Sequence record: PP274704.1
Reading direction: 5' to 3' (one strand)
DNA: 64,000 nt
From: Escherichia phage ECp13
Part shown: piece by piece, positions 6,138-54,511 of the stretch
How the letters are laid out: every line of letters begins with the position of its first letter
Numbering within the stretch: position 1 is the first letter of the stretch
Position numbers and translations under genes: made by a program
The notes under the pieces: model-generated
Told to the model about the DNA's origin: nothing
The model's input: only the letters and a program-made list of their open reading frames with translations
The model's database searches: none

Positions 6138-7340
6138 ATGAAAGTATGCATTTTTATGGCTCGAGGTCTTGAAGGTTGCGGCGTAACTAAATTTTCTCTC
6201 GAGCAGCGTGATTGGTTTATTAAAAATGGTCATGAAGTAACTTTGGTTTATGCTAAAGATAAATCATTTACCCGTAATTGCGCGCATGATTATAAATCAT
6301 TTTCAATTCCGGTTTTATTGGCAAAAGAATACGATAAAACACTTAAGCTGGTAAATGATTGTGATATTCTAATTATCAATTCAGTTCCTGCTACTTCAGT
6401 CGAAGAAGACACTATTAATAACTATAAAAAAATTATTGATAACATTAAACCTTCAGTTCGTGTTGTAGTTTATCAACATGACCATTCTTCTCTTTCTTTG
6501 CGCCGAAATTTGGGATTAGAAGAAACTGTTCGTCGAGCTGATGTTATTTTTAGTCATTCTGATAATGGCGATTTTAATAAAGTTTTGATGAAAGAATGGT
6601 ATCCAGAAACAGTTTCTCTGTTTGATGATATTGAAGAAGCACCGACTGTATACAACTTTCAGCCTCCTATGGATATTGCGAAGGTTCGATCAACCTACTG
6701 GAAAGATGTTTCTGAAATTAATATGAATGTCAACCGTTGGATCGGTCGTACGACTACATGGAAAGGTTTTTATCAGATGTTTGATTTTCACGAAAAACAT
6801 CTTAAACCTGCGGGATTAAGTACTATTATGGAAGGTCTGGAACGTTCTCCTGCGTTCATTCCTATTAAAGAAAAAGGAATTCCATACGAATATTATCGTC
6901 TTCATCAAGTAGACCAAATTAAAATTGCTCCTAATTTGCCGACGCAAATTCTCGACCGTTATGTAAATAGCGAAATGCTTGAACGCATGAGTAAATCCGG
7001 ATTTGGTTATCAGCTGAGTAAGTTGGATAAAAAATATCTACAACGTTCTTTAGAATATACTCATCTCGAGCTTGGTGCGTGTGGAACAATTCCAGTATTT
7101 TGGAAATCTACTGGCGAAAATTTAAAATTCCGTGTTGATAATACTCCGTTAATTTCTCATGATAGCGGTATCGTTTGGTTTGATGAAAATGACATGGAAT
7201 CAACATTTGAGCGTATTAAAGAACTGTCATCTGACCGAAATCTTTATGACCGTGAACGCGAAAAAGCTTATGAATTTTTGTATCAGCATCAAGATTCAAG
7301 CTTCTGCTTTAAAGAACAGTTTGACATTATTACAAAATAA
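6138..7340 (+). CDS. agt: DNA alpha-glucosyltransferase
   Basis: 400 aa; N-terminus MKVCIFMARGLEGCGVTKFSLEQ matches remembered T4 alpha-gt; between 55 and 47. Confidence 0.85.
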   Translation: MKVCIFMARGLEGCGVTKFSLEQRDWFIKNGHEVTLVYAKDKSFTRNCAHDYKSFSIPVLLAKEYDKTLKLVNDCDILIINSVPATSVEEDTINNYKKIIDNIKPSVRVVVYQHDHSSLSLRRNLGLEETVRRADVIFSHSDNGDFNKVLMKEWYPETVSLFDDIEEAPTVYNFQPPMDIAKVRSTYWKDVSEINMNVNRWIGRTTTWKGFYQMFDFHEKHLKPAGLSTIMEGLERSPAFIPIKEKGIPYEYYRLHQVDQIKIAPNLPTQILDRYVNSEMLERMSKSGFGYQLSKLDKKYLQRSLEYTHLELGACGTIPVFWKSTGENLKFRVDNTPLISHDSGIVWFDENDMESTFERIKELSSDRNLYDREREKAYEFLYQHQDSSFCFKEQFDIITK

Positions 7341-17740: not shown

Positions 17741-18481
17741 ATGATTAATGACTCTTTGACAGTTGAAGAAACTCGTCTTCATTTGGGAATTGCGTTAAAG
17801 GAAAAAGATTTCGTAATTGATAAAACTGGCGTTAAAACTATTGAAATTATTGGCGCATCATTTGTAGCAGATGAACCGTTTATTTTTGGCGCTCTTAATG
17901 ATGAATACATTCAGCGTGAACTTGAATGGTATAAATCTAAAAGTTTGTTTGTTAAAGATATTCCGGGTGAAACACCGAAGATTTGGCAACAGGTAGCATC
18001 TTCTAAAGGCGAAATTAACTCGAATTATGGTTGGGCCATCTGGTCAGAAGATAACTATGCCCAGTATGATATGTGTTTAGCTGAACTTGGTCAAAATCCT
18101 GATTCTCGACGTGGTATCATGATTTATACTCGTCCATCCATGCAGTTTGACTACAATAAAGATGGTATGTCAGATTTCATGTGTACGAATACAGTACAGT
18201 ACCTGATTCGTGATAAGAAAGTCAATGCAGTAGTAAGCATGCGTTCAAATGACGTGGTCTTCGGATTCCGTAATGATTATGCATGGCAAAAATACGTACT
18301 AGATAAATTAGTATCTGATTTGAATGCAGGTGATTCAACTCGTCAGTATAAAGCAGGTTCCATTATATGGAATGTCGGGAGCCTTCATGTGTATTCCCGT
18401 CATTTTTATTTGGTTGACCATTGGTGGAAAACTGGCGAAACTCATATTGCGAAAAAAGATTATAACGGTGAGTGGAAATGA
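17741..18481 (+). CDS. 42: dCMP hydroxymethylase gp42
   Basis: 246 aa; thymidylate-synthase-like; position next to imm. Confidence 0.85.
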   Translation: MINDSLTVEETRLHLGIALKEKDFVIDKTGVKTIEIIGASFVADEPFIFGALNDEYIQRELEWYKSKSLFVKDIPGETPKIWQQVASSKGEINSNYGWAIWSEDNYAQYDMCLAELGQNPDSRRGIMIYTRPSMQFDYNKDGMSDFMCTNTVQYLIRDKKVNAVVSMRSNDVVFGFRNDYAWQKYVLDKLVSDLNAGDSTRQYKAGSIIWNVGSLHVYSRHFYLVDHWWKTGETHIAKKDYNGEWK

Positions 18482-19320
18482 TTCAATTCGTAATTCCAAG
18501 CTATCAACGCGTAGGGGCAGTTTCTGCCCTTGATATGTTTCCGACTGATTATGAACCTCATATTGTAGTACGTGAACACGAAGAAAAAGCTTATTATGAC
18601 GCTTACGGGTCTAGAGCTAAAATTATAACTATTCCTGATGATGTTAATGGAATTGCTGGTACTCGTAAAGCAATTACTGATATGTATGCAGGTCAACGAA
18701 TTTGGATGATTGATGATGATACTACTATTCGTATGAGTTCAATGCGAAAGAAAGATGATCGTCGCTGCGTAGATAAAATTAATCAGTTAACTCGTGAACA
18801 GTTCTATGAATTGATTCAATACGTTGAAGATGCCATGGATTGCGGGTATTATCACGGTCATGCTCGTCTACCTATTTTTAAAATTACTTCATCTTGGGGT
18901 AATTATCGTGAAAATTCATATGGATTCACGAATACTTGGTATGACCTCGGGAAACTTACAACAGAACAAATTGGGTATGGAAAAATTGATTTATGCGAAG
19001 ATATGTATGCATTTCTCAATTTAATTAATCAAGGTTATCCGCATTTGGCCTTGTTCAAATATCTGGTTGTGTCTGGAAAAGCACAGGCTCCTGGCGGATG
19101 TAGTTCAATTCGTAGTAATTCAAAACATAATAGAGCTCTTGAGCAAATCAATAGAGAGTTTCCAGAGCAAGCTCGTTGGAAAACATCGAATATCGAAAAG
19201 AGAAAATCGTTGGGTGAAGAAGACGAGCCATTAAAAGTTCTTCGCATGTGTGTTTCGCGCAAAGAAAAATCAGAAGCATTTCATAAGTTTAATGCTATTC
19301 ATCCAATAGCAGTTGATTAA
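18478..19320 (+). CDS. Putative DNA glycosyltransferase at the bgt locus (possibly T2/T6-type beta-glucosyl-HMC-alpha-glucosyltransferase)
   Basis: 280 aa from ATG 18478 (ATGA overlap with gene 42); DxD-like WMIDDDTTI; unlike the 351 aa T4 beta-gt as I recall it. Confidence 0.45.
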   Translation: MIQFVIPSYQRVGAVSALDMFPTDYEPHIVVREHEEKAYYDAYGSRAKIITIPDDVNGIAGTRKAITDMYAGQRIWMIDDDTTIRMSSMRKKDDRRCVDKINQLTREQFYELIQYVEDAMDCGYYHGHARLPIFKITSSWGNYRENSYGFTNTWYDLGKLTTEQIGYGKIDLCEDMYAFLNLINQGYPHLALFKYLVVSGKAQAPGGCSSIRSNSKHNRALEQINREFPEQARWKTSNIEKRKSLGEEDEPLKVLRMCVSRKEKSEAFHKFNAIHPIAVD

Positions 19321-20925: not shown

Positions 20926-22353
20926 GTGGTAGAAATTATTCTTTCTCATCTCATATTTGATCAAGCTTATTTTTCAAAAGTTTGGCCATATATGGATTCA
21001 GAATATTTTGAAAGTGGTCCAGCTAAAAATACATTCAAATTAATTAAATCTCATGTTAATGAGTACCATAGCGTTCCATCTATTAATGCGTTAAATGTTG
21101 CATTAGAAAATAGTTCATTTACTGAAACAGAATATTCTGGTGTAAAAACACTTATTTCGAAACTAGCCGATTCTCCAGAAGACCACAGCTGGTTAGTAAA
21201 AGAAACAGAAAAATATGTTCAGCAAAGGGCGATGTTTAATGCTACGTCTAAAATAATTGAAATTCAAACCAATGCTGAGCTTCCTCCGGAAAAACGAAAT
21301 AAGAAAATGCCGGATGTTGGTGCTATTCCTGACATTATGCGCCAAGCATTATCAATTTCATTTGATAGCTACGTTGGTCATGATTGGATGGATGACTACG
21401 AAGCACGTTGGCTATCTTATATGAATAAAGCTCGTAAGGTTCCATTTAAACTCAAAATTCTAAATAAAATTACTAAAGGCGGAGCTGAAACTGGAACACT
21501 AAACGTTTTAATGGCTGGTGTTAACGTTGGTAAGTCATTAGGTCTGTGTTCATTGGCAGCAGATTATTTACAGCTCGGTCATAATGTTCTTTACATTTCA
21601 ATGGAAATGGCAGAAGAAGTCTGTGCTAAGCGTATTGACGCTAATATGCTTGATGTTTCTCTTGATGACATTGATGACGGGCATATTTCTTACGCTGAGT
21701 ATAAAGGAAAAATGGAAAAATGGCGTGAGAAATCTACTCTCGGCCGTTTAATCGTTAAGCAATATCCTACTGGTGGAGCAGACGCTAACACATTTCGATC
21801 GCTTTTAAACGAATTGAAGCTCAAGAAGAATTTTGTTCCAACAATCATTATTGTTGACTATCTGGGTATTTGTAAATCTTGCCGCATTAGAGTTTATTCA
21901 GAAAATAGTTACACAACTGTTAAAGCTATCGCAGAGGAATTGCGTGCTCTGGCTGTTGAAACTGAAACTGTTCTTTGGACTGCAGCACAGGTTGGTAAAC
22001 AAGCTTGGGATTCTTCTGATGTTAACATGAGCGATATCGCAGAATCTGCCGGTCTTCCAGCAACAGCCGATTTTATGCTTGCGGTCATTGAAACCGAGGA
22101 GTTAGCAGCTGCTGAACAACAACTCATTAAGCAAATCAAATCACGATATGGTGATAAGAATAAATGGAATAAGTTTTTGATGGGTGTTCAAAAAGGAAAT
22201 CAGAAATGGGTAGAAATTGAACAAGATTCTACTCCAACTGAAGTGAACGAAGTAGCAGGTTCACAGCAGATTCAGGCTGAACAGAATCGCTATCAAAGAA
22301 ACGAATCTGCTCGAGCTCAGTTAGATGCTTTGGCAAATGAATTAAAATTTTAG
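20926..22353 (+). CDS. 41: Replicative helicase gp41 (DnaB-like), GTG start
   Basis: 475 aa; Walker A GVNVGKS; N-terminus VEIILSHLIFDQAYF. Confidence 0.9.
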   Translation: MVEIILSHLIFDQAYFSKVWPYMDSEYFESGPAKNTFKLIKSHVNEYHSVPSINALNVALENSSFTETEYSGVKTLISKLADSPEDHSWLVKETEKYVQQRAMFNATSKIIEIQTNAELPPEKRNKKMPDVGAIPDIMRQALSISFDSYVGHDWMDDYEARWLSYMNKARKVPFKLKILNKITKGGAETGTLNVLMAGVNVGKSLGLCSLAADYLQLGHNVLYISMEMAEEVCAKRIDANMLDVSLDDIDDGHISYAEYKGKMEKWREKSTLGRLIVKQYPTGGADANTFRSLLNELKLKKNFVPTIIIVDYLGICKSCRIRVYSENSYTTVKAIAEELRALAVETETVLWTAAQVGKQAWDSSDVNMSDIAESAGLPATADFMLAVIETEELAAAEQQLIKQIKSRYGDKNKWNKFLMGVQKGNQKWVEIEQDSTPTEVNEVAGSQQIQAEQNRYQRNESARAQLDALANELKF

Positions 22354-22383
22354 TTTACAAGCTGACAAGACTATGGTATAGTA
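22345..22383 (+). promoter_or_regulatory. Early promoter (GTTTAC, 18 nt, TATAGT)
   Basis: tagtttacaagctgacaagactatggtatagt upstream of dmd. Confidence 0.5.
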
Positions 22384-22411
22384 GTCTTGTTGGTTAAATG
22401 AGGAGATTGTT

Positions 22412-22594
22412 ATGGAATTGGTAAAGGTAGTTTTTATGGGGTGGTTTAAGAACGAAAGCATATTTGCTAAAGAAATCACAATGATGAAAGATGACGTTCA
22501 ATGGGCTACTACTCAATATGCTGAAGTTAATAAAGCGCTAGTTAAAGCTTTCATTGATGACAAGAAAGTATGTGAAGTGGATTGCCGAGGATAA
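22412..22594 (+). CDS. dmd: Dmd antitoxin (inhibitor of host RnlA/LsoA RNases)
   Basis: 60 aa; sequence agrees with remembered T4 Dmd; first gene after 41. Confidence 0.7.
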   Translation: MELVKVVFMGWFKNESIFAKEITMMKDDVQWATTQYAEVNKALVKAFIDDKKVCEVDCRG

Positions 22595-22595
22595 T

Positions 22596-22853
22596 ATGCA
22601 TATTGTTTTATTTAAACCTACTCCGTATAATGTCAGGAAAAATACTCAATTCAAAGCACTTATTGCAGATACGTGGGAATTAGTATTAGATATTCCAGCA
22701 GAAGAAAGTCCTCCATTTGGTCGAGTGGAATTTATTAAGTTTGCTGTGCGCCCTACGAAGCGACAGATTCGTCAATGCAAAAGATACTTTCGTAAAATCG
22801 TCAAGTTAGAGAAACAGTTTGTAACATGTGATTATACAGAAGTTTTAAAATAA
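22596..22853 (+). CDS. Hypothetical protein (85 aa from ATG)
   Basis: ORF track 22554..22853; first ATG after dmd stop at 22596. Confidence 0.5.
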   Translation: MHIVLFKPTPYNVRKNTQFKALIADTWELVLDIPAEESPPFGRVEFIKFAVRPTKRQIRQCKRYFRKIVKLEKQFVTCDYTEVLK

Positions 22854-23217: not shown

Positions 23218-23574
23218 ATGTACAGTTCTGAATTTTCATATTTAAAAATGGAAAAAATTTCATACGATTTCATAGATGAAAAGATTTATTACAGCTTCCA
23301 TGAACCGCGTTTTAATAGTGAGGTTGGGTTTATTGTAGTAAAAGACAATTTCATTTTAAAGATATATTCGGCATTAAAGGATTTTCATTACGAAAATATT
23401 AACCTAAAATTTGATAAAGAAAACGTTCGTAATTGTGCAGTAACAATTACAGGAAATAAAGGTACATGTGTTATGCTATCTGATGAAATTAATGATTTGT
23501 TAAATGATGTAGAAAAGGTTGCTATTCCATCTATTGATGACCAAATTTTTAATGCTTTTATGAATAGAGGTTAA
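23218..23574 (+). CDS. Hypothetical protein (118 aa)
   Basis: ORF track. Confidence 0.55.
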   Translation: MYSSEFSYLKMEKISYDFIDEKIYYSFHEPRFNSEVGFIVVKDNFILKIYSALKDFHYENINLKFDKENVRNCAVTITGNKGTCVMLSDEINDLLNDVEKVAIPSIDDQIFNAFMNRG

Positions 23575-23742: not shown

Positions 23743-24771
23743 ATGTCATCAATACCTTGGATTGATAATGAGTTTGCATACCGTGCATTAGCTCATTTAC
23801 CTAAATTCACACAAGTAAATAATAGTTCAACTTTTAAATTGCGGTTTAGATGCCCTGTTTGTGGAGATTCAAAAACCGACCAAAATAAAGCCCGTGGATG
23901 GTATTATGGTGATAATAATGAAGGAAATATTCATTGTTATAACTGCAACTATCATGCACCAATCGGAATATATTTAAAGGAGTTTGAACCTGATTTATAT
24001 CGTGAGTATATCTTTGAAATAAGAAAAGAAAAAGGTAAAAGTCGTCCAGTAGAAAAACCTAAAGAACTTCCTAAACAACCTGAGAAGAAAATAATTAAAT
24101 CTCTTCCGTCATGCATTAGATTAGATAAACTGGCGGAAGACCATCCAATTATAAAATATGTAAAAGCTCGTTGTATTCCAAAGAATAAATGGAAATATCT
24201 TTGGTTTACAACCGAATGGCCTAAATTAGTTAATAGTATAGCGCCAGGAACATATAAAAAGGAAATACCTGAGCCTCGTCTTGTTATTCCAATTTATAAT
24301 GCTAACGGAAAAGCTGAGTCTTTTCAAGGACGTGCATTAAAGAAAGATGCTCCTCAAAAATATATCACCATCAAAGCTTATCCTGAGGCAACAAAAATTT
24401 ATGGAGTTGAACGGGTTAAAGATGGTGATGTATATGTTCTAGAAGGACCTATAGATTCACTTTTTATTGAAAATGGTATAGCTATTACGGGCGGTCAATT
24501 AGACCTAGAAATTGTTCCATTTAAAGATAGACGTGTATGGGTTTTAGATAATGAACCTCGTCATCCTGACACTATTAAACGAATGACTAAATTGGTCGAT
24601 GCAGGAGAAAGGGTTATGTTTTGGGACAAATCTCCCTGGAAATCAAAAGATGTTAATGATATGATTAGAAAGGAAGGTGCAACCCCTAAACAAATTATGG
24701 AATATATGAAAAATAATATTGCCCAAGGGTTGATGGCTAAAATGCGGCTATCTAAATATGCTAAGATTTAA
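23743..24771 (+). CDS. 61: DNA primase gp61
   Basis: 342 aa; Zn ribbon CPVCGDS...CYNC; TOPRIM domain. Confidence 0.9.
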   Translation: MSSIPWIDNEFAYRALAHLPKFTQVNNSSTFKLRFRCPVCGDSKTDQNKARGWYYGDNNEGNIHCYNCNYHAPIGIYLKEFEPDLYREYIFEIRKEKGKSRPVEKPKELPKQPEKKIIKSLPSCIRLDKLAEDHPIIKYVKARCIPKNKWKYLWFTTEWPKLVNSIAPGTYKKEIPEPRLVIPIYNANGKAESFQGRALKKDAPQKYITIKAYPEATKIYGVERVKDGDVYVLEGPIDSLFIENGIAITGGQLDLEIVPFKDRRVWVLDNEPRHPDTIKRMTKLVDAGERVMFWDKSPWKSKDVNDMIRKEGATPKQIMEYMKNNIAQGLMAKMRLSKYAKI

Positions 24772-24968
24772 ATTAACCCAACTAAAGCAAATGCTAAATC
24801 TACGAATGTATCAAGAGTAATTACTGGAATATTAACGCCATGAGCAATAGCAATTGGCGATAAAACAAAATTCCAGAGTAAAATTCCTACCATAGCAGAA
24901 ATAGTAAAAGCTATACGTTTTTTATTACCTTTTATGGCATTAACAAGTGCCATTAATTTTTGTACCAT
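24768..24968 (-). CDS. Hypothetical two-helix membrane protein (66 aa) on the opposite strand
   Basis: Minus-strand ATG preceded by AAGGAGG; convergent with gene 61. Confidence 0.5.
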   Translation of the reverse strand: MVQKLMALVNAIKGNKKRIAFTISAMVGILLWNFVLSPIAIAHGVNIPVITLDTFVDLAFALVGLI

Positions 24969-24977
24969 ATGTCCTCC

Positions 24978-25006
24978 TTATTGCTTTATATATTTATTGT
25001 ATAATT
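24978..25006 (+). promoter_or_regulatory. Middle promoter: MotA box TGCTTTA, 11 nt, TATAAT
   Basis: ttaTTGCTTTAtatatttattgTATAAT upstream of gene 56. Confidence 0.5.
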
Positions 25007-25039
25007 AATCTACTAACCCATGAATTGAAAGGAAAAATA

Positions 25040-25557
25040 ATGGCTTACTTTAATGAATGTAGTCAACTGATTGAAGGCGCTGATAAAGCTCAAAATGAAT
25101 ACTGGGATATTCTCGGCGATGAAAAAGACCCGCTGCAGGTTATGCTTGATATGCAGAAATCTCTGCAGGTTCGTTTAGCTAAAGATAAACCTGAATATAA
25201 CCGTCATCCTGATGATTTGGCTACTGCAGGTGAAGTTGTTGATTGGCTGCGTAATCAGAAAGATTATATTGATGATGAATTCCGCGAACTTCTGACTTCT
25301 CTTGGTGGTATGAGCAATGGCGAAAAAGATGCATCTGCTGTATGGAAGCTTGGAAGTCGCAACACGGTGAACGTCGTGAAACTCTGATTACTGACTTATC
25401 TCCACAAGACCAGTTGGAAATTAAATTCGAAATGATTGATATTCTTCATTTCGTTCTGAACATGTTCCAAGGTCTCGGTCTTACGGCTGAAGAAATCTTT
25501 AAACTTTATTATCTGAAAAATGCTGAAAACTTCGCTCGTCAAGACCGAGGTTATTAA
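25040..25557 (+). pseudogene. 56: dCTPase/dUTPase gp56, interrupted by apparent 1-nt deletion near 25346-25350
   Basis: Frame A ends ...ASAVWK then runs to a stop at 25387; frame B resumes (E)AWKSQ...ARQDRGY; the two pieces sum to ~172 aa, the intact length. Confidence 0.6.
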
Positions 25558-25974: not shown

Positions 25975-26187
25975 ATGTTAAATCGTTGGATTAAACCAAA
26001 TGAAGACCTCCAGAAGGTTCTTGATAAAGCTATCTCTGATAAATGGGGTATGAAAAGCTGGGATTGTGATATCGTCACGCATTCATTCATGATGCATGCA
26101 GATGGTTCAGTCGAGTTCAATGCTGAAATGCGATACACTGACTGGGGTGGATTTCAAAGAGTCGAATTTCAAAGAGGCTTTTTGTAA
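25975..26187 (+). CDS. Hypothetical protein (70 aa)
   Basis: ORF track; GAGGAGAG SD. Confidence 0.5.
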   Translation: MLNRWIKPNEDLQKVLDKAISDKWGMKSWDCDIVTHSFMMHADGSVEFNAEMRYTDWGGFQRVEFQRGFL

Positions 26188-26307
26188 TGTTTATCTTTAA
26201 TTGGTTTAAAAGTTTCTTTACGGATTTTTTTCTCTACAACTCCCGGAGAAGGTGTAGTTCCTATTTCAAATGACTACCTTCCTTTAACTGTAGTTGAATA
26301 TGTTTAT

Positions 26308-26526
26308 ATGGGAGATGGAACAGTAGAAGCGGTTACTATGACTTATGAAGAAGCCCAGGAATATTATAAAAATCCTTGGCGCTGGTCAACACCTACATCA
26401 TCTAATGCGCAGAATACACAGTCTAGTTCTGATTCATATGACACTAATGTTCCTGTTCATGTATGGACGGGCGATTCATGTGGAAGTTCTTGTGATTCTA
26501 GTTGTTCATCTACATCTTGTGATTGA
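26308..26526 (+). CDS. Hypothetical protein (72 aa), Ser/Cys-rich C-terminus
   Basis: ORF track; tail [18 protein letters not shown]. Confidence 0.45.
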
Positions 26527-28080: not shown

Positions 28081-28704
28081 ATGATTATTAATCTCGCAGA
28101 TGTTGAACAGTTATCTATAAAAGCTGAAAGTGTCGATTTTCAATATGATATGTATAAAAAGGTCTGTGAAAAATTTACTGACTTTGAACAGTCAATTCTT
28201 TGGCAATGTATGGAAGCCAAAAAGAATGAAGCTCTTCATCGGCAGTTGAATAAAATCGTTAAAAAGCATTTAACTAAATCGCCTTATCAGCTATATCGTG
28301 GTATATCAAAATCGACAAAAGAACTCATTAAAGATTTACAAGTTGGAGAAGTGTTTTCAACGAACAGAGTAGATTCATTTACTACTAGTTTGCATACAGC
28401 ATGTGGTTTTTCTTATGTTGAATATTCCACTGAAATAATATTTCGCTTAAAAACTGATAAAGCTTTTAATTATTCTGACCATATCAGCGATATTATACTT
28501 TCTTCTCCTAATACTGAGTTTAAGTATACATATGAAGATACTGATGGATTAGATTCAGAACGTACTGATAACTTAACGATGATTGTACGTGAACAAGAAT
28601 GGATGATTCCAATTGGAAAGTATAAAATAACTTCTATTTCAAAAGAAAAATTACACGATTCATTTGGAACATTTAAAGTGTATGATATTGAGGTAGTTGA
28701 ATGA
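28081..28704 (+). CDS. modB: ADP-ribosyltransferase ModB
   Basis: 207 aa from ATG 28081 (GGAGG SD); R-S-E triad LYRG / STN / EQEWMIP. Confidence 0.75.
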   Translation: MIINLADVEQLSIKAESVDFQYDMYKKVCEKFTDFEQSILWQCMEAKKNEALHRQLNKIVKKHLTKSPYQLYRGISKSTKELIKDLQVGEVFSTNRVDSFTTSLHTACGFSYVEYSTEIIFRLKTDKAFNYSDHISDIILSSPNTEFKYTYEDTDGLDSERTDNLTMIVREQEWMIPIGKYKITSISKEKLHDSFGTFKVYDIEVVE

Positions 28705-29303
28705 AATATTCAGCAATGCAATTAAAAGATTTTAAAATCAAATCAATGGATGCATCGGTGCGTGCTTCTATTCGCGAAGAATTACTTTCTGAAGGATTTA
28801 ATTTATCCGAAATTGAACTTTTAATTCATTGTATTACTAATAAGCCAGACGATCATTCTTGGTTAAATGAAATAATCAAATCTCGTTTGGAACCAAACGA
28901 TAAACCTCTTTGGAGAGGTGTTCCAGTTGAGACTAAGCAGGTGTTAAATCAAGGAATTGATATTATTACATTTGATAAAGTAGTATCAGCTTCATATGAT
29001 AAAAATATAGCTCTACATTTTGCTTCTGGATTAGAATACAATACACAAGTTATTTTTGAATTCAAAGCTCCTATGGTATTTAATTTCCAGGAGTATGCTA
29101 TAAAAGCTCTACGTTGTAAAGAATATAGTCCGAGTTTTAAGTTTCCAGATAGCCATCGCTATCGTAATATGGAATTAGTTTCAGATGAACAAGAAGTAAT
29201 GATACCTGCTGGAAGTGTATTTAGAATTGCGGATAGATACGAGTATAAAAAGTATTCAACATACACTATCTATACTCTTGATTTTGAAGGATTTAATCTA
29301 TAA
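28701..29303 (+). CDS. modA: ADP-ribosyltransferase ModA
   Basis: 200 aa; paralog of ModB; LWRG / SAS / EQEVMIP; ATGA overlap. Confidence 0.75.
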   Translation: MKYSAMQLKDFKIKSMDASVRASIREELLSEGFNLSEIELLIHCITNKPDDHSWLNEIIKSRLEPNDKPLWRGVPVETKQVLNQGIDIITFDKVVSASYDKNIALHFASGLEYNTQVIFEFKAPMVFNFQEYAIKALRCKEYSPSFKFPDSHRYRNMELVSDEQEVMIPAGSVFRIADRYEYKKYSTYTIYTLDFEGFNL

Positions 29304-35915: not shown

Positions 35916-36092
35916 ATGCCAATGTATGATTATAAATGCCAATCCGAAGATTGCGGGCATGAATATGAAAAAATTAAAAAGATTTCTGAACGAGAAAATG
36001 ATGTTTGTCCTAAATGTCATCGTCTGTCTACTCGTCGGCCTTCTGCTCCTAAGCATGTGAATGGTGGATTTTACGACTTACTTAAAGGGTGA
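35916..36092 (+). CDS. Small zinc-ribbon protein (58 aa), FmdB-like CxxC...CxxC
   Basis: MPMYDYKCQSEDCGHEYE...DVCPKCH; ATG follows previous stop. Confidence 0.45.
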   Translation: MPMYDYKCQSEDCGHEYEKIKKISERENDVCPKCHRLSTRRPSAPKHVNGGFYDLLKG

Positions 36093-36094
36093 TT

Positions 36095-36466
36095 ATGTTT
36101 AAAATCGGTAAGAAATATCGTGTTCGTGAAGGTGAAGAAAAGAAATATCTGCTTTCTTCTATTTATAGGAATGGTTCTATTAATGCCGTAATATCTACAA
36201 GCGAATTTATCGTTGAAGATATGAAAGGTAATAATGTTACAATGATTAGTACAGCATCTGGAAATGACGGAAAAATTCTTCACAGTTTTCAGAGTAATGT
36301 TCTAATATATGATGAAGAATTTGACTTCTTCGAAGAAGTTCCTGAAGATTTTAGTTTTGAATGCACTATCACTATGAAATCTGGCGACCCTCTTTCTTTT
36401 ACGGTTAAAGATGAAAGAAGCCGCTTGAGAATTATTAGTCTCCTTCAAGCCATTAAATTTGAGTGA
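36095..36466 (+). CDS. Hypothetical protein (123 aa)
   Basis: ORF track (GTG 36089 / ATG 36095). Confidence 0.5.
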   Translation: MFKIGKKYRVREGEEKKYLLSSIYRNGSINAVISTSEFIVEDMKGNNVTMISTASGNDGKILHSFQSNVLIYDEEFDFFEEVPEDFSFECTITMKSGDPLSFTVKDERSRLRIISLLQAIKFE

Positions 36467-36470
36467 AATT

Positions 36471-36731
36471 ATGAAATATGTTAATCGTTCTATCGCGGCA
36501 TTAGTATTAGCAGTGTCTTTAGCAGGATGTACTGATGCTGATAATGCAACCAAAGTTTTGTCTTCAAGTGGGTTTACTAATATTGAAATCACTGGATACA
36601 ATTGGTTCGGTTGCTCTGAAAATGATTTCCAACATACTGGATTTCGTGCTATTGGACCTACCGGGCAGAAAGTAGAAGGAACCGTATGTTCTGGTCTATT
36701 CTTCAAGGATTCGACTATCCGTTTTAAATAA
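36471..36731 (+). CDS. Putative lipoprotein (86 aa)
   Basis: Signal peptide with lipobox LAGC; ATG 36471. Confidence 0.5.
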   Translation: MKYVNRSIAALVLAVSLAGCTDADNATKVLSSSGFTNIEITGYNWFGCSENDFQHTGFRAIGPTGQKVEGTVCSGLFFKDSTIRFK

Positions 36732-36750
36732 AAGGCCTTCGGGCCTTTAG
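36731..36750 (+). terminator. Hairpin AGGCC-UUCG-GGCCU plus U-rich tail
   Basis: aaaggccttcgggccttt. Confidence 0.55.
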
Positions 36751-36800
36751 CTTTATGATTACCGGAGTATAATATTCCCGAAACCAAACGAGGATAAGTG

Positions 36801-38618
36801 ATGATTAAGAATGAAATTAAAATTCTGAGCGATATTGAACATATCAAAAAGCGTAGCGGCATGTACATTGGCTCTTCCGCTAATGAAATGCATGAGCGCT
36901 TTCTGTTTGGTAAATGGGAAAGTGTTCAGTATGTACCTGGTCTTGTTAAGCTTATTGATGAAATTATCGATAACTCAGTAGATGAAGGTATTCGTACTAA
37001 GTTTAAATTCGCGAATAAAATTAATGTTACTATCAAAAACAATCAAGTAACAGTTGAAGATAACGGTCGTGGTATTCCACAAGCGATGGTTAAAACACCT
37101 ACTGGTGAAGAAATTCCCGGTCCTGTTGCCGCCTGGACTATTCCAAAAGCAGGTGGTAACTTCGGTGATGATAAAGAACGTGTCACTGGCGGTATGAACG
37201 GTGTTGGTTCTAGTTTAACTAACATTTTTTCTGTGATGTTTGTCGGTGAAACTGGCGACGGTCAAAATAATATTGTAGTTCGTTGTTCAAATGGCATGGA
37301 AAATAAATCATGGGAAGATATTCCCGGAAAATGGAAAGGAACTCGTGTTACTTTCATTCCTGATTTTATGTCATTTGAAACTAATGAGCTGTCTCAAGTT
37401 TATCTTGACATTACACTGGATCGTCTCCAGACACTTGCAGTAGTTTATCCTGATATTCAATTTACCTTTAATGGTAAAAAGGTTCAGGGTAATTTTAAGA
37501 AATATGCACGCCAATATGATGAGCATGCTATTGTTCAAGAACAAGAAAATTGTTCTATTGCGGTTGGTCGTTCACCAGATGGTTTTCGTCAATTAACATA
37601 CGTCAATAACATTCATACTAAGAATGGTGGCCATCACATTGACTGCGTTATGGATGATATTTGTGAAGACCTTATTCCACAAATCAAACGTAAGTTCAAA
37701 ATTGATGTAACTAAAGCACGTGTTAAAGAATGTTTGACTATCGTTATGTTTGTTCGTGATATGAAAAACATGCGATTTGATTCTCAGACTAAAGAGCGTT
37801 TGACTTCTCCATTTGGTGAAATTCGTAGTCATATTCAGCTTGATGCTAAAAAGATTTCACGTGCTATTTTAAATAATGAAGCAATTTTAATGCCAATTAT
37901 TGAAGCTGCCTTGGCTCGTAAATTGGCAGCAGAAAAAGCAGCAGAAACTAAAGCAGCTAAAAAGGCTTCTAAAGCTAAGGTTCATAAACATATTAAAGCG
38001 AATCTTTGTGGTAAAGACGCTGACACTACTCTTTTCTTGACTGAGGGTGATTCTGCTATCGGATATCTTATTGATGTTCGTGATAAAGAACTTCATGGTG
38101 GTTATCCATTGCGTGGTAAAGTTCTCAACAGTTGGGGTATGTCATATGCTGATATGCTTAAAAACAAAGAACTGTTTGATATTTGTGCAATTACTGGATT
38201 AGTTCTTGGTGAAAAAGCTGAAAACTTGAATTATCATAATATTGCTATTATGACCGATGCTGACCATGATGGTCTAGGAAGCATTTATCCTTCTCTGCTC
38301 GGATTTTTTAGTAATTGGCCAGAACTGTTTGAACAAGGAAGAATTCGCTTCGTCAAAACTCCTGTAATCATCGCTCAGGTCGGTAAAAAACAAGAATGGT
38401 TTTATACAGTCGCTGAATATGAGAGTGCCAAAGATGCTCTACCTAAACATAGCATCCGTTATATTAAGGGACTTGGCTCTTTGGAAAAATCTGAATATCG
38501 TGAGATGATTCAAAACCCAGTATATGATGTTGTTAAACTTCCTGAGAACTGGAAAGAGCTTTTTGAAATGCTCATGGGAGATAATGCTGACCTTCGTAAA
38601 GAATGGATGAGCCAATAG
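36801..38618 (+). CDS. 39: Topoisomerase II large subunit gp39, uninterrupted full-length form (includes the part T4 encodes as gene 60)
   Basis: 605 aa; GHKL ATPase N-domain; TOPRIM LTEGDSAIGY; PLRGK. Confidence 0.9.
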   Translation: MIKNEIKILSDIEHIKKRSGMYIGSSANEMHERFLFGKWESVQYVPGLVKLIDEIIDNSVDEGIRTKFKFANKINVTIKNNQVTVEDNGRGIPQAMVKTPTGEEIPGPVAAWTIPKAGGNFGDDKERVTGGMNGVGSSLTNIFSVMFVGETGDGQNNIVVRCSNGMENKSWEDIPGKWKGTRVTFIPDFMSFETNELSQVYLDITLDRLQTLAVVYPDIQFTFNGKKVQGNFKKYARQYDEHAIVQEQENCSIAVGRSPDGFRQLTYVNNIHTKNGGHHIDCVMDDICEDLIPQIKRKFKIDVTKARVKECLTIVMFVRDMKNMRFDSQTKERLTSPFGEIRSHIQLDAKKISRAILNNEAILMPIIEAALARKLAAEKAAETKAAKKASKAKVHKHIKANLCGKDADTTLFLTEGDSAIGYLIDVRDKELHGGYPLRGKVLNSWGMSYADMLKNKELFDICAITGLVLGEKAENLNYHNIAIMTDADHDGLGSIYPSLLGFFSNWPELFEQGRIRFVKTPVIIAQVGKKQEWFYTVAEYESAKDALPKHSIRYIKGLGSLEKSEYREMIQNPVYDVVKLPENWKELFEMLMGDNADLRKEWMSQ

Positions 38619-38886: not shown

Positions 38887-41063
38887 ATGATTATCACCAC
38901 TGAAAAAGAAACAATTCTTGGTAATGGTTCTAAATCAAAAGCATTTAGCATCACAGCATCTCCTAAAGTATTCAAAATTCTGTCATCTGATTTGTATACA
39001 AACAAGATTCGCGCAGTAGTCCGTGAATTGATTACCAACATGATTGATGCCCATGCTCTCAATGGAAATCCTGAAAAATTTATCATTCAAGTTCCAGGAC
39101 GATTAGATCCGCGATTTGTTTGTCGAGATTTTGGTCCAGGTATGAGCGATTTTGATATTCAAGGTGATGATAATTCTCCTGGGTTGTATAATTCATACTT
39201 TAGTTCATCTAAGGCTGAATCTAACGATTTCATTGGTGGATTTGGTTTAGGTTCTAAATCTCCGTTTAGTTATACTGATACATTTAGTATTACTTCATAT
39301 CATAAAGGCGAAATTCGTGGTTATGTAGCTTACATGGATGGCGATGGTCCACAAATTAAACCTACATTTGTAAAAGAAATGGGTCCAGATGATAAAACTG
39401 GTATTGAAATCGTAGTTCCAGTTGAAGAAAAAGACTTTAGAAACTTTGCTTATGAAGTTTCTTATATCATGCGACCATTCAAAGATTTAGCTATCATTAA
39501 TGGTCTTGACCGCGAAATTGATTATTTTCCGGATTTTGATGACTATTACGGCGTAAATCCAGAAAGATACTGGCCAGATCGTGGTGGATTGTATGCTATC
39601 TATGGCGGTATTGTTTATCCTATCGATGGTGTTATTAGAGACCGTAACTGGTTAAGCATCCGTAATGAAGTGAATTACATTAAGTTTCCAATGGGTTCAC
39701 TTGATATTGCTCCATCACGCGAAGCTCTTTCACTAGATGATCGTACTCGTAAAAATATTATTGAGCGTGTTAAAGAGCTTAGTGAGAAGGCATTCAATGA
39801 AGATGTAAAACGATTTAAAGAATCTACATCTCCTCGTCATACATACCGTGAATTGATGAAGATGGGATATTCTGCTCGAGATTATATGATTAGTAATTCA
39901 GTCAAATTTACGACTAAAAATCTGTCATATAAGAAGATGCAAAGCATGTTTGAACCAGATAGTAAGCTATGCAATGCAGGAGTTGTGTATGAAGTAAATC
40001 TTGACCCTCGACTGAAACGCATTAAGCAAAGTCATGAAACTTCAGCCGTTGCATCAAGTTATCGTCTGTTCGGTATTAATACAACAAAAATTAATATCGT
40101 TATTGATAATATTAAAAATCGCGTTAATATTGTCCGTGGATTAGCGCATGCGTTAGATGATAAAGAATTTAATAACACTTTAAATATTCATCACAACGAG
40201 CGTCTTCTGTTTATTAATCCGGAAGTAGAATCGCAGATTGATTTACTCCCTGATATTATGGCAATGTTTGAAAGTGATGAAGTTAACTTCATCACTTGTC
40301 AGAAATTGAAGCTTTAGTTAAAAGTTATATTCCGAAGGCAGTTAAAAGTAAAGCTCCTCGTCCTAAAGCTGCTACTGCGTTTAAGTTTGAAATTAAAGAC
40401 GGGCGCTGGGAAAAAGAGGAACTGTTTACACTTACGTCAGAAGCAGATGAAATTACTGGTTATGTAGCATACATGCATCGTTCTGATATTTTCTCTATGG
40501 ATGGTACTACATCGCTCTGTAATCCGTCTACGAGTATTTTGACTCGTATGGCTAATCTTATTGGCATTAATGAATTTTATGTTATTCGTCCACTTTTGCA
40601 GAAAAAGGTAAAAGAACTTGGTCAGTGCCAATGTATTTTTGAAACTCTACGTGATTTATATGTAGATGCTTTTGATGATGTAGATTATGATAAGTATGTA
40701 GGTTATTCAAGTTCAGCTAAACGATATATTGATAAAATTATCAAGTATCCTGAGTTAGATTTTATGATGAAGTACTTCAGTGTAGATGAAGTTTCCGAAG
40801 AATATACACGACTCGCTAATATGGTTAGTTCATTACAGGGTGTATATTTCAACTGTGGAAAAGATACCATCGGTCATGACATCTGGACAGTAACTAATCT
40901 TTTTGATGTATTATCAAACAATGCTTCAAAAAACAGTGATAAAATGGTTACTGAGTTTACTAAGAAATTCCGTATTGTTTCCGACTTCATCGGTTATCGC
41001 AACTCTTTAAGTGATGATGAAGTTTCCCAAATCGCTAAAACTATGAAGGCCCTTGCGGCCTAA
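38887..41063 (+). pseudogene. rIIA: rIIA, split by apparent 1-nt deletion between 40284 and 40296
   Basis: ORF 38887..40317 (476 aa) plus ORF 40296..41063 (255 aa) together match remembered 725 aa rIIA; frame changes at ...FESDEV / [10 protein letters not shown]. Confidence 0.7.
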
Positions 41064-44366: not shown

Positions 44367-44822
44367 ATGAAATACATGACTGTTACTGATTTGAATAATG
44401 CAGGTGCTACTGTTATTGGTACAATCAAGGGCGGTGAATGGGTTTTTGGAACTCCACATAAAGACATTTTATCTACACCTGGATTTTACTTTTTAGTGAG
44501 TAAATTTGGTGGTCCATTTGATAGTCCGTGTGTATCTGCACGATTTTATGTAGGTAATCAGCGTTCTAAGCAAGGATTCAGTGCAGTTCTAAGTCATATT
44601 CGTCAGCGTCGGTCTCAGCTTGCGCGTACTATTGCAAATAATAATGTTCCATATACAGTATTTTATCTTCCTGCTTCTAAGATGAAACCTTTGACGACAG
44701 GATTTGGAAAAGGTCAGTTAGCTTTAGCGTTTACTCGTAATCATCATTCTGAGTATCAAACACTTGAAGAAATGAATCGTATGTTGGCTGATAACTTTAA
44801 ATTTGTTTTACAGGCATACTAA
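44367..44822 (+). CDS. ndd: Nucleoid disruption protein Ndd
   Basis: 151 aa; position and length as T4 ndd. Confidence 0.75.
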
Positions 44823-44995
44823 TGAAAGCTCTATTTGTAATGGGTTACCTATTAGTTTTAGCCTTATTCACAGTGACCGGAATCTTTATGGCTTTAGGTC
44901 TACCTCTTAATGATAATGCGGCTGTCGTGATGTGTGTAGGTGGCGGATTTATCTGTTTTGAACGTTTATGCAAAATGTGTGGTGTGTATGAGTAA
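44822..44995 (+). CDS. Hypothetical membrane protein (57 aa)
   Basis: ATG overlapping ndd stop; hydrophobic. Confidence 0.4.
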
Positions 44996-45068
44996 TTTCC
45001 ATAACGAACATGTGATGCAGTTCTATCGTAACAATCTTAAAACCAAAGGCGTCTTCGGACGCCAGTGA
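44988..45068 (+). CDS. stp: Stp peptide (26 aa), activator of host PrrC anticodon nuclease
   Basis: [26 protein letters not shown], 26 codons, next to ac and 52. Confidence 0.75.
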
Positions 45069-48988: not shown

Positions 48989-49267
48989 ATGATTATTGAT
49001 TCTCAGTCTGTGGTTCAATACACAATCAAAATTGATATTCTAGAAAAGCTATATAAGTTTTTACCAAATTTATACCACTCAATTGTTAATGAATTAGTTG
49101 AAGAACTGCATCTTGAGAATAATGATTTCTTGGTTGGAACTTATAAAGACCTCTCAAAAGCAGGATATTTTTACGTAATTCCAGCTCCAGGAAAAAGTAT
49201 TGATGATGTATTAAAAACTATAATGATTTATGTCCATGATTATGAAATTGAAGATTATTTCGAATGA
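48989..49267 (+). CDS. arn: Arn (anti-restriction nuclease, McrBC inhibitor), probable
   Basis: 92 aa ORF with AAGGGGAAGG SD, two genes upstream of asiA. Confidence 0.5.
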   Translation: MIIDSQSVVQYTIKIDILEKLYKFLPNLYHSIVNELVEELHLENNDFLVGTYKDLSKAGYFYVIPAPGKSIDDVLKTIMIYVHDYEIEDYFE

Positions 49268-49428: not shown

Positions 49429-49701
49429 ATGAATAAAAATATTGATACAGTTCGTGAAATTATTACTGTTGCGTCTATTTTGATTAAATTTTCCAGAGAA
49501 GATATTGTTGAGAATCGCGCTAATTTTATTGCATTTCTGAATGAGATTGGAGTAACGCATGAAGGTAGAAAGTTAAATCAGAATTCATTCCGTAAAATTG
49601 TTTCTGAATTAACTCAAGAAGATAAGAAAACCCTCATCGACGAATTCAACGAGGGTTTTGAGGGTGTATATCGATATCTAGAGATGTATACAAACAAATA
49701 A
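49429..49701 (+). CDS. asiA: Anti-sigma70 factor AsiA
   Basis: 90 aa; MNKNIDTVREIITVASILIKFSREDIVENRANFIAFLNEIGVTHEG matches remembered T4 AsiA. Confidence 0.85.
   Translation: MNKNIDTVREIITVASILIKFSREDIVENRANFIAFLNEIGVTHEGRKLNQNSFRKIVSELTQEDKKTLIDEFNEGFEGVYRYLEMYTNK

Positions 49702-50388: not shown

Positions 50389-54511
<4,123 letters not shown>

Follow-up and report, generated by a model that had tools for sequence, protein, structure and literature searches.

A T4-type dmd antitoxin gene, already annotated in GenBank, directly downstream of gene 41 in Escherichia phage ECp13

We examined a stretch of 64,000 nucleotides from Escherichia phage ECp13 (PP274704.1; called the window below). 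Going by its sequence, the open reading frame at 22412..22594 on the plus strand is a real and intact T4-type dmd gene (formerly 61.5) of a T4-like phage of the genus Tequatrovirus. In the ORF listing of the window it has an ATG start and 60 codons followed by TAA, and its translation is MELVKVVFMGWFKNESIFAKEITMMKDDVQWATTQYAEVNKALVKAFIDDKKVCEVDCRG. This dmd is already known as an ordinary T4-type copy annotated in GenBank: an exact-sequence look-up returned an identical protein, WWE96865.1 'antitoxin Dmd [Escherichia phage ECp13]', and since that protein has been deposited there is nothing new in the gene itself. Because it is 97% identical to its T4 counterpart and has matching expression signals and genomic context, the ECp13 copy would very probably act as T4 dmd does, by direct inhibition of RnlA/LsoA after host shut-off. 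Dmd is a textbook phage-encoded antitoxin, and a near-identical copy adds little beyond correct annotation.

Matches to a PDB chain, a Pfam family and a PHROG family show that the ORF is not a product of chance. A search of PDB chains paired the ECp13 protein with 5hy3_B, 'Antitoxin Dmd' of T4 from a co-crystal with LsoA, at 58 of 60 identical residues over residues 1-60 without gaps (E 3.3e-36); a second match was to a more distant Dmd, 5i8j (E 1.3e-16). The Pfam model PF17587 (Dmd, 'Discriminator of mRNA degradation') aligned to residues 1-60 along all of its 60 positions with 152.2 bits (E 4.7e-45), where the gathering cut-off is 27 bits, and PHROG 2102 ('Dmd discriminator of mRNA degradation') matched with an E value of 1.5e-37. 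Searching in the other direction with T4 Dmd (AF158101, 20371..20553), tblastn hit this ORF and nothing else in the window (96.7% identity). The first-pass annotation had read this ORF as T4 Dmd and named alignment with the T4 protein as the check; the value of 96.7% extends over the full length and is not the low identity that was to count against the reading, which therefore stands.

Homologues of Dmd are encoded in 800 phage records, almost all of them from Escherichia, Shigella, Yersinia or Salmonella T4-like phages, and the annotated ones are mostly named Dmd, antitoxin or discriminator of mRNA degradation. The best Dmd match in the phage collection was 96.7% identical, and none of the records there encodes the exact ECp13 protein. 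Two minus-strand ORFs, 22342..22479 (45 aa) and 22394..22516 (40 aa), overlap the conserved dmd on the opposite strand and were taken as chance. An AlphaFold2 model of Dmd, built on a shallow alignment of 28 close homologues, came out as a single 58-residue helix (pLDDT 88, pTM 0.47), which we discarded as an artefact of that alignment. When the model was compared with the PDB by Foldseek, no chain was matched, the 97%-identical 5hy3_B included, and the model is unreliable. We infer a Dmd-like fold for the ECp13 protein from its 97% sequence identity.

The gene is placed as it is in T4. Gene 41, encoding the helicase (20926..22353, plus strand; 475 aa, 99.6% identical to T4 gp41 by tblastn), ends at 22353, so that dmd follows after a 58-nt spacer, in which 57 of the 58 nucleotides are identical to T4; its position directly after gene 41 had been called correctly from the start. 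A consensus scan (10/12 matches, with an extended -10 TG) predicts a sigma-70-type early promoter, TTTACA-17 nt-TATAGT, at 22354..22382 on the plus strand. In T4, an early promoter upstream of dmd drives a two-gene unit of dmd and 61.4 (PMC9391042). A Shine-Dalgarno sequence, GAGGAG (22400..22405, plus strand), lies 6 nt before the dmd ATG and is the same in T4, as is the order of the genes: uvsX-40-41-dmd-61.4-sp-61.2 slot-61.1-61. The identity, intactness, expression signals and context of dmd are established here.

Just 3' of the gene 41 stop is an inverted repeat (22361..22394, plus strand) with a 14-bp stem and a 6-nt loop, which overlaps the spacer and the -10 element of the predicted promoter and is conserved in T4. 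As RNA, the 76-nt stretch around it folds with -20.2 kcal/mol (z -4.1), and none of 200 shuffled sequences was as stable. This hairpin would form solely in read-through transcripts from gene 41, and might act on gene 41 transcripts as a terminator, a processing site or a 3' stabiliser.

The role of Dmd in T4 is to neutralise RnlA and LsoA (PMC5308261, PMC8266594, PMC9391042), as the first-pass annotation had stated. RnlA is a chromosomal toxin of K-12, and LsoA is carried on plasmid pOSAK1 of O157:H7 (PMC5308261, PMC8266594). In the account of the LsoA-Dmd structure that PMC8266594 gives, citing Wan et al., Dmd sits in a groove between the N-repeated/TBP2 and HEPN ('Dmd-binding') domains, close to a conserved Arg/Glu/Arg needed for toxicity. 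If ECp13 follows T4, its own sigma-70-type promoter would ensure early transcription of dmd together with the downstream tifA. [quoted passage not shown] The 60-aa Dmd would replace the lost antitoxin and block the toxin by binding directly in the NRD (TBP2)/HEPN groove, allowing late phage mRNAs to survive. Work on T4 is what leads us to expect early expression, toxin binding and a matching phenotype for the ECp13 gene.

Compared codon by codon, the dmd genes of ECp13 and T4 differ in five codons and no indel; three of the changes are synonymous (N14, A42 and L43) and two alter the protein, ATG to ATA giving M17I and ACT to GCT giving T19A. The residues W31 and N40 are both kept in ECp13 Dmd. 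Both are reportedly required for binding of LsoA and suppression of its toxicity, according to the 2016 work of Wan and colleagues. We tallied 74 distinct 60-aa T4-type Dmd alleles from a search of 5.8 billion protein clusters; N40 is invariant among them and W31 is altered in one. The more distant Dmd 5i8j keeps both M17 and T19, so that in the family as a whole these two positions do not vary freely.

The two substitutions raise the possibility that the ORF, while a true orthologue of dmd, is an M17I/T19A allele of shifted or narrowed toxin specificity, which might suit the RnlA/LsoA of Shigella or of non-K-12 E. coli and be weaker on K-12 RnlA or pOSAK1 LsoA. Positions 17 and 19 do stand out as highly polymorphic in a protein that otherwise hardly varies, ranking fourth (M/I/V/T) and joint sixth (T/A/I) in variability among the 74 alleles. 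The I17/A19 combination occurs in one deposited phage only among about 15 billion proteins, and the genomes nearest to the window are those of Shigella phages (sb3, pSs-1 and ESh16; 97.5-98.2%). However, the exchanges of Met for Ile and Thr for Ala are conservative, and each has been found separately in natural alleles: T19A alone in P0001, and M17I, together with I22T, in P0010. Sequencing noise may account for many of the singletons in the collection, and the dN/dS is unremarkable (two non-synonymous against three synonymous changes). We regard an altered specificity as very unlikely, though as the likeliest of the alternatives to a dmd that works as in T4. The broader idea, that the I17/A19 double substitution may mark a specificity-determining patch, with Dmd alleles tracking different RnlA/LsoA-family toxins across Escherichia/Shigella hosts, is a speculation to which we give little credence.

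Nor do we give any real weight to the idea that the ORF is inactive or unexpressed, a relic retained solely as leader sequence for tifA. It would fit the reliance of T4 tifA on a promoter upstream of dmd (PMC9391042), and several other genes in the window are broken. No part of the ORF is missing, however, and its ATG, stop codon, promoter and GAGGAG ribosome-binding site are all intact; its divergence from T4 is mostly synonymous, which points to purifying selection, and the gene is retained in hundreds of related phages. A relic is exceedingly improbable, and we favor an ECp13 dmd that works as T4 dmd does.

The broken genes bear on the quality of the sequence. Gene 56 (dCTPase/dUTPase; 25040..25557, plus strand) has a frameshift at about 25349, where the window lacks one of the two bases of a CC pair present in Shigella phage ESh16, and its product in the window is 115 aa instead of 172 aa. 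Gene 56 is essential in T4, and that it should be broken suggests that the deposited sequence contains errors; this frameshift is probably one of them. The rIIA gene (38887..41063, plus strand) lacks 1 nt near 40288 in comparison with T4 and is thereby split into 38887..40317 (476 aa) and an overlapping 40296..41063 (255 aa), either as a true rIIA mutant or through a sequence error. An apparent frameshift is also found near 26227 in mrh.1 (26187..26526, plus strand), whose first 15 residues lie in a different frame from the remaining 100; the longest intact mrh.1 ORF is 72 aa. The genome sequence may therefore contain errors, and the frameshifts in gene 56, rIIA and mrh.1 call for caution in conclusions at the level of alleles, the two Dmd substitutions included, although the differences in dmd are substitutions and not indels.

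Immediately downstream, gene 61.4 or tifA (22596..22853, plus strand; 85 aa, PHROG 2375) starts 1 base past the dmd stop. Its product is identical to T4 gp61.4 at 83 of 85 residues, the differences being A81T and I83V, and its gene has nine further, synonymous changes. The T4 gene was renamed tifA by Srikant, Guegler and Laub (eLife 2022, PMC9391042) because gp61.4 binds and inhibits the type III toxin ToxN, an RNase. In T4, over-expression of dmd fails to counter toxIN (PMC9391042). The two genes, dmd and tifA, make up a cassette directed against toxin-antitoxin systems. Neither a second copy of dmd nor a tandem dmd-tifA amplification of the kind seen in evolved T4 is present in the window, where tblastn gave a single match.

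Next after 61.4/tifA comes spackle (61.3), followed by the 61.2 slot. In T4, 61.2 encodes AdfA, an anti-DarT factor (PMC11257639). The slot in ECp13 (23218..23574, plus strand) is occupied by a 118-aa protein that replaces the T4 AdfA of 208 aa. This protein belongs to PHROG 4122, has counterparts of 93-100% identity in about 290 phages besides T2 and SH7, and resembles AdfA in the C-terminal ~100 residues only, at 35% identity. It had been proposed that small unassigned ORFs interleaved with the known genes are perhaps further host-takeover or anti-defence genes. The literature supports this for 61.4, which has become TifA, and for T4 61.2, now AdfA (PMC9391042, PMC11257639). Along with 61.3 (spackle), these two no longer count as unassigned, but the 61.2 slot of ECp13 differs from that of T4. 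The useful outcome of the analysis is a map of a local anti-toxin cluster, in which dmd, tifA and spackle are joined by a T2-type protein where T4 has AdfA.

We transferred the T4 annotation to the window by tblastn with T4 proteins. Gene order in the window follows the reverse complement of T4 through nrdG, gene 43, uvsX, 41, 61, modA/B, dda, 39 and rIIA, and the collinearity continues past the T4 map origin through rIIB, ndd, stp, motA, arn, asiA and the tail-fibre genes to gene 32. The first-pass annotation had seen a dense complement of host-takeover and anti-defence genes in the window. This holds, and the following of the genes it named were recovered by tblastn with the T4 proteins: stp (44988..45065, 100% identity), ndd (44367..44819, 95%), arn (48989..49264, 97%), asiA (49429..49698, 100%), modB (28081..28701, 95%), modA (28701..29300, 97%) and a-gt (6138..7337, 90.5%). 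The claim needs amending for the second glucosyltransferase, which is not T4 b-gt. No tblastn match to b-gt was found in the window, and the gene between genes 42 and uvsX is ba-gt, encoding a beta-glucosyl-HMC-alpha-glucosyltransferase (18472..19320, plus strand; 282 aa, PHROG 842, E 2e-89). The presence of ba-gt in place of b-gt would imply a gentiobiosyl DNA modification of the T2/T6 type.

Other modules also depart from T4. Genes 39 and 60 form one unsplit ORF of 606 aa (36798..38618, plus strand), without the mobA insertion and without the gene 60 bypass element. On the minus strand, gp38 (50389..51180; PHROG 2056) is an adhesin of the T2 type and gp37 (51200..54511) is 33% identical to that of T4. 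With its ba-gt, T2-type gp38, unsplit 39+60 and divergent gp37, the phage is T2/T6-like in these modules. The T4 homing endonuclease genes of the stretch covered (segA, segF, segG, mobA, mobB and mobC) are all absent from the window.

T4 Dam likewise gave no tblastn match anywhere in the window. The dam slot between genes 56 and 61 (24768..25040) is a gap of ~270 nt without dam, which carries a 66-aa ORF (24768..24968, minus strand; PHROG 2024), as in Shigella phage ESh16. Between 39.2 and 39.1 there is an extra ORF of 125 aa (36089..36466, plus strand) with no counterpart in T4. An ORF of 188 aa on the minus strand (36302..36868) has no PHROG match, overlaps both the conserved 39.1 and the 125-aa ORF, and is probably spurious.

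Finally, we compared the ECp13 protein with known systems. Its closest relative is T4 Dmd (gene 61.5; 5HY3 chain B), with which it shares a length of 60 aa, 58 of 60 residues and the slot between gene 41 and 61.4/tifA. The loci are also alike, in that the promoter and ribosome-binding regions are 1 base apart and a 1-nt gap separates dmd from the downstream gene in both. The two genes differ in the residues Met17 and Thr19 of T4, which are Ile17 and Ala19 in ECp13, and in three silent changes. The 64-aa Dmd of 5I8J, whose structure was solved alone, and the Dmds of <60% identity in 294 phage records share a Pfam and PHROG family with the ECp13 protein and can be aligned end to end with it. However, Dmds of the 5I8J type have about 45-58% identity to it and a 2-residue insertion after position 24, and ECp13 Dmd clearly falls in the T4-type subgroup and not in that of 5I8J.

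The host antitoxins RnlB and LsoB share with Dmd the role of direct inhibition of RnlA/LsoA (PMC5308261, PMC8266594). They are unrelated to it in sequence and size, RnlB having 123 aa against the 60 aa of Dmd, and RnlB, which touches the NRD domain as well and depends on RNase HI, reportedly works by a different mechanism (PMC5308261). Unlike RnlB and LsoB, Dmd is encoded by the phage without a linked toxin gene. T4 TifA is comparable to Dmd as an adjacent and co-transcribed small early protein that neutralises the RNase of a toxin-antitoxin system by direct binding, although it comes from another protein family (PHROG 2375) and acts on another target, ToxN.
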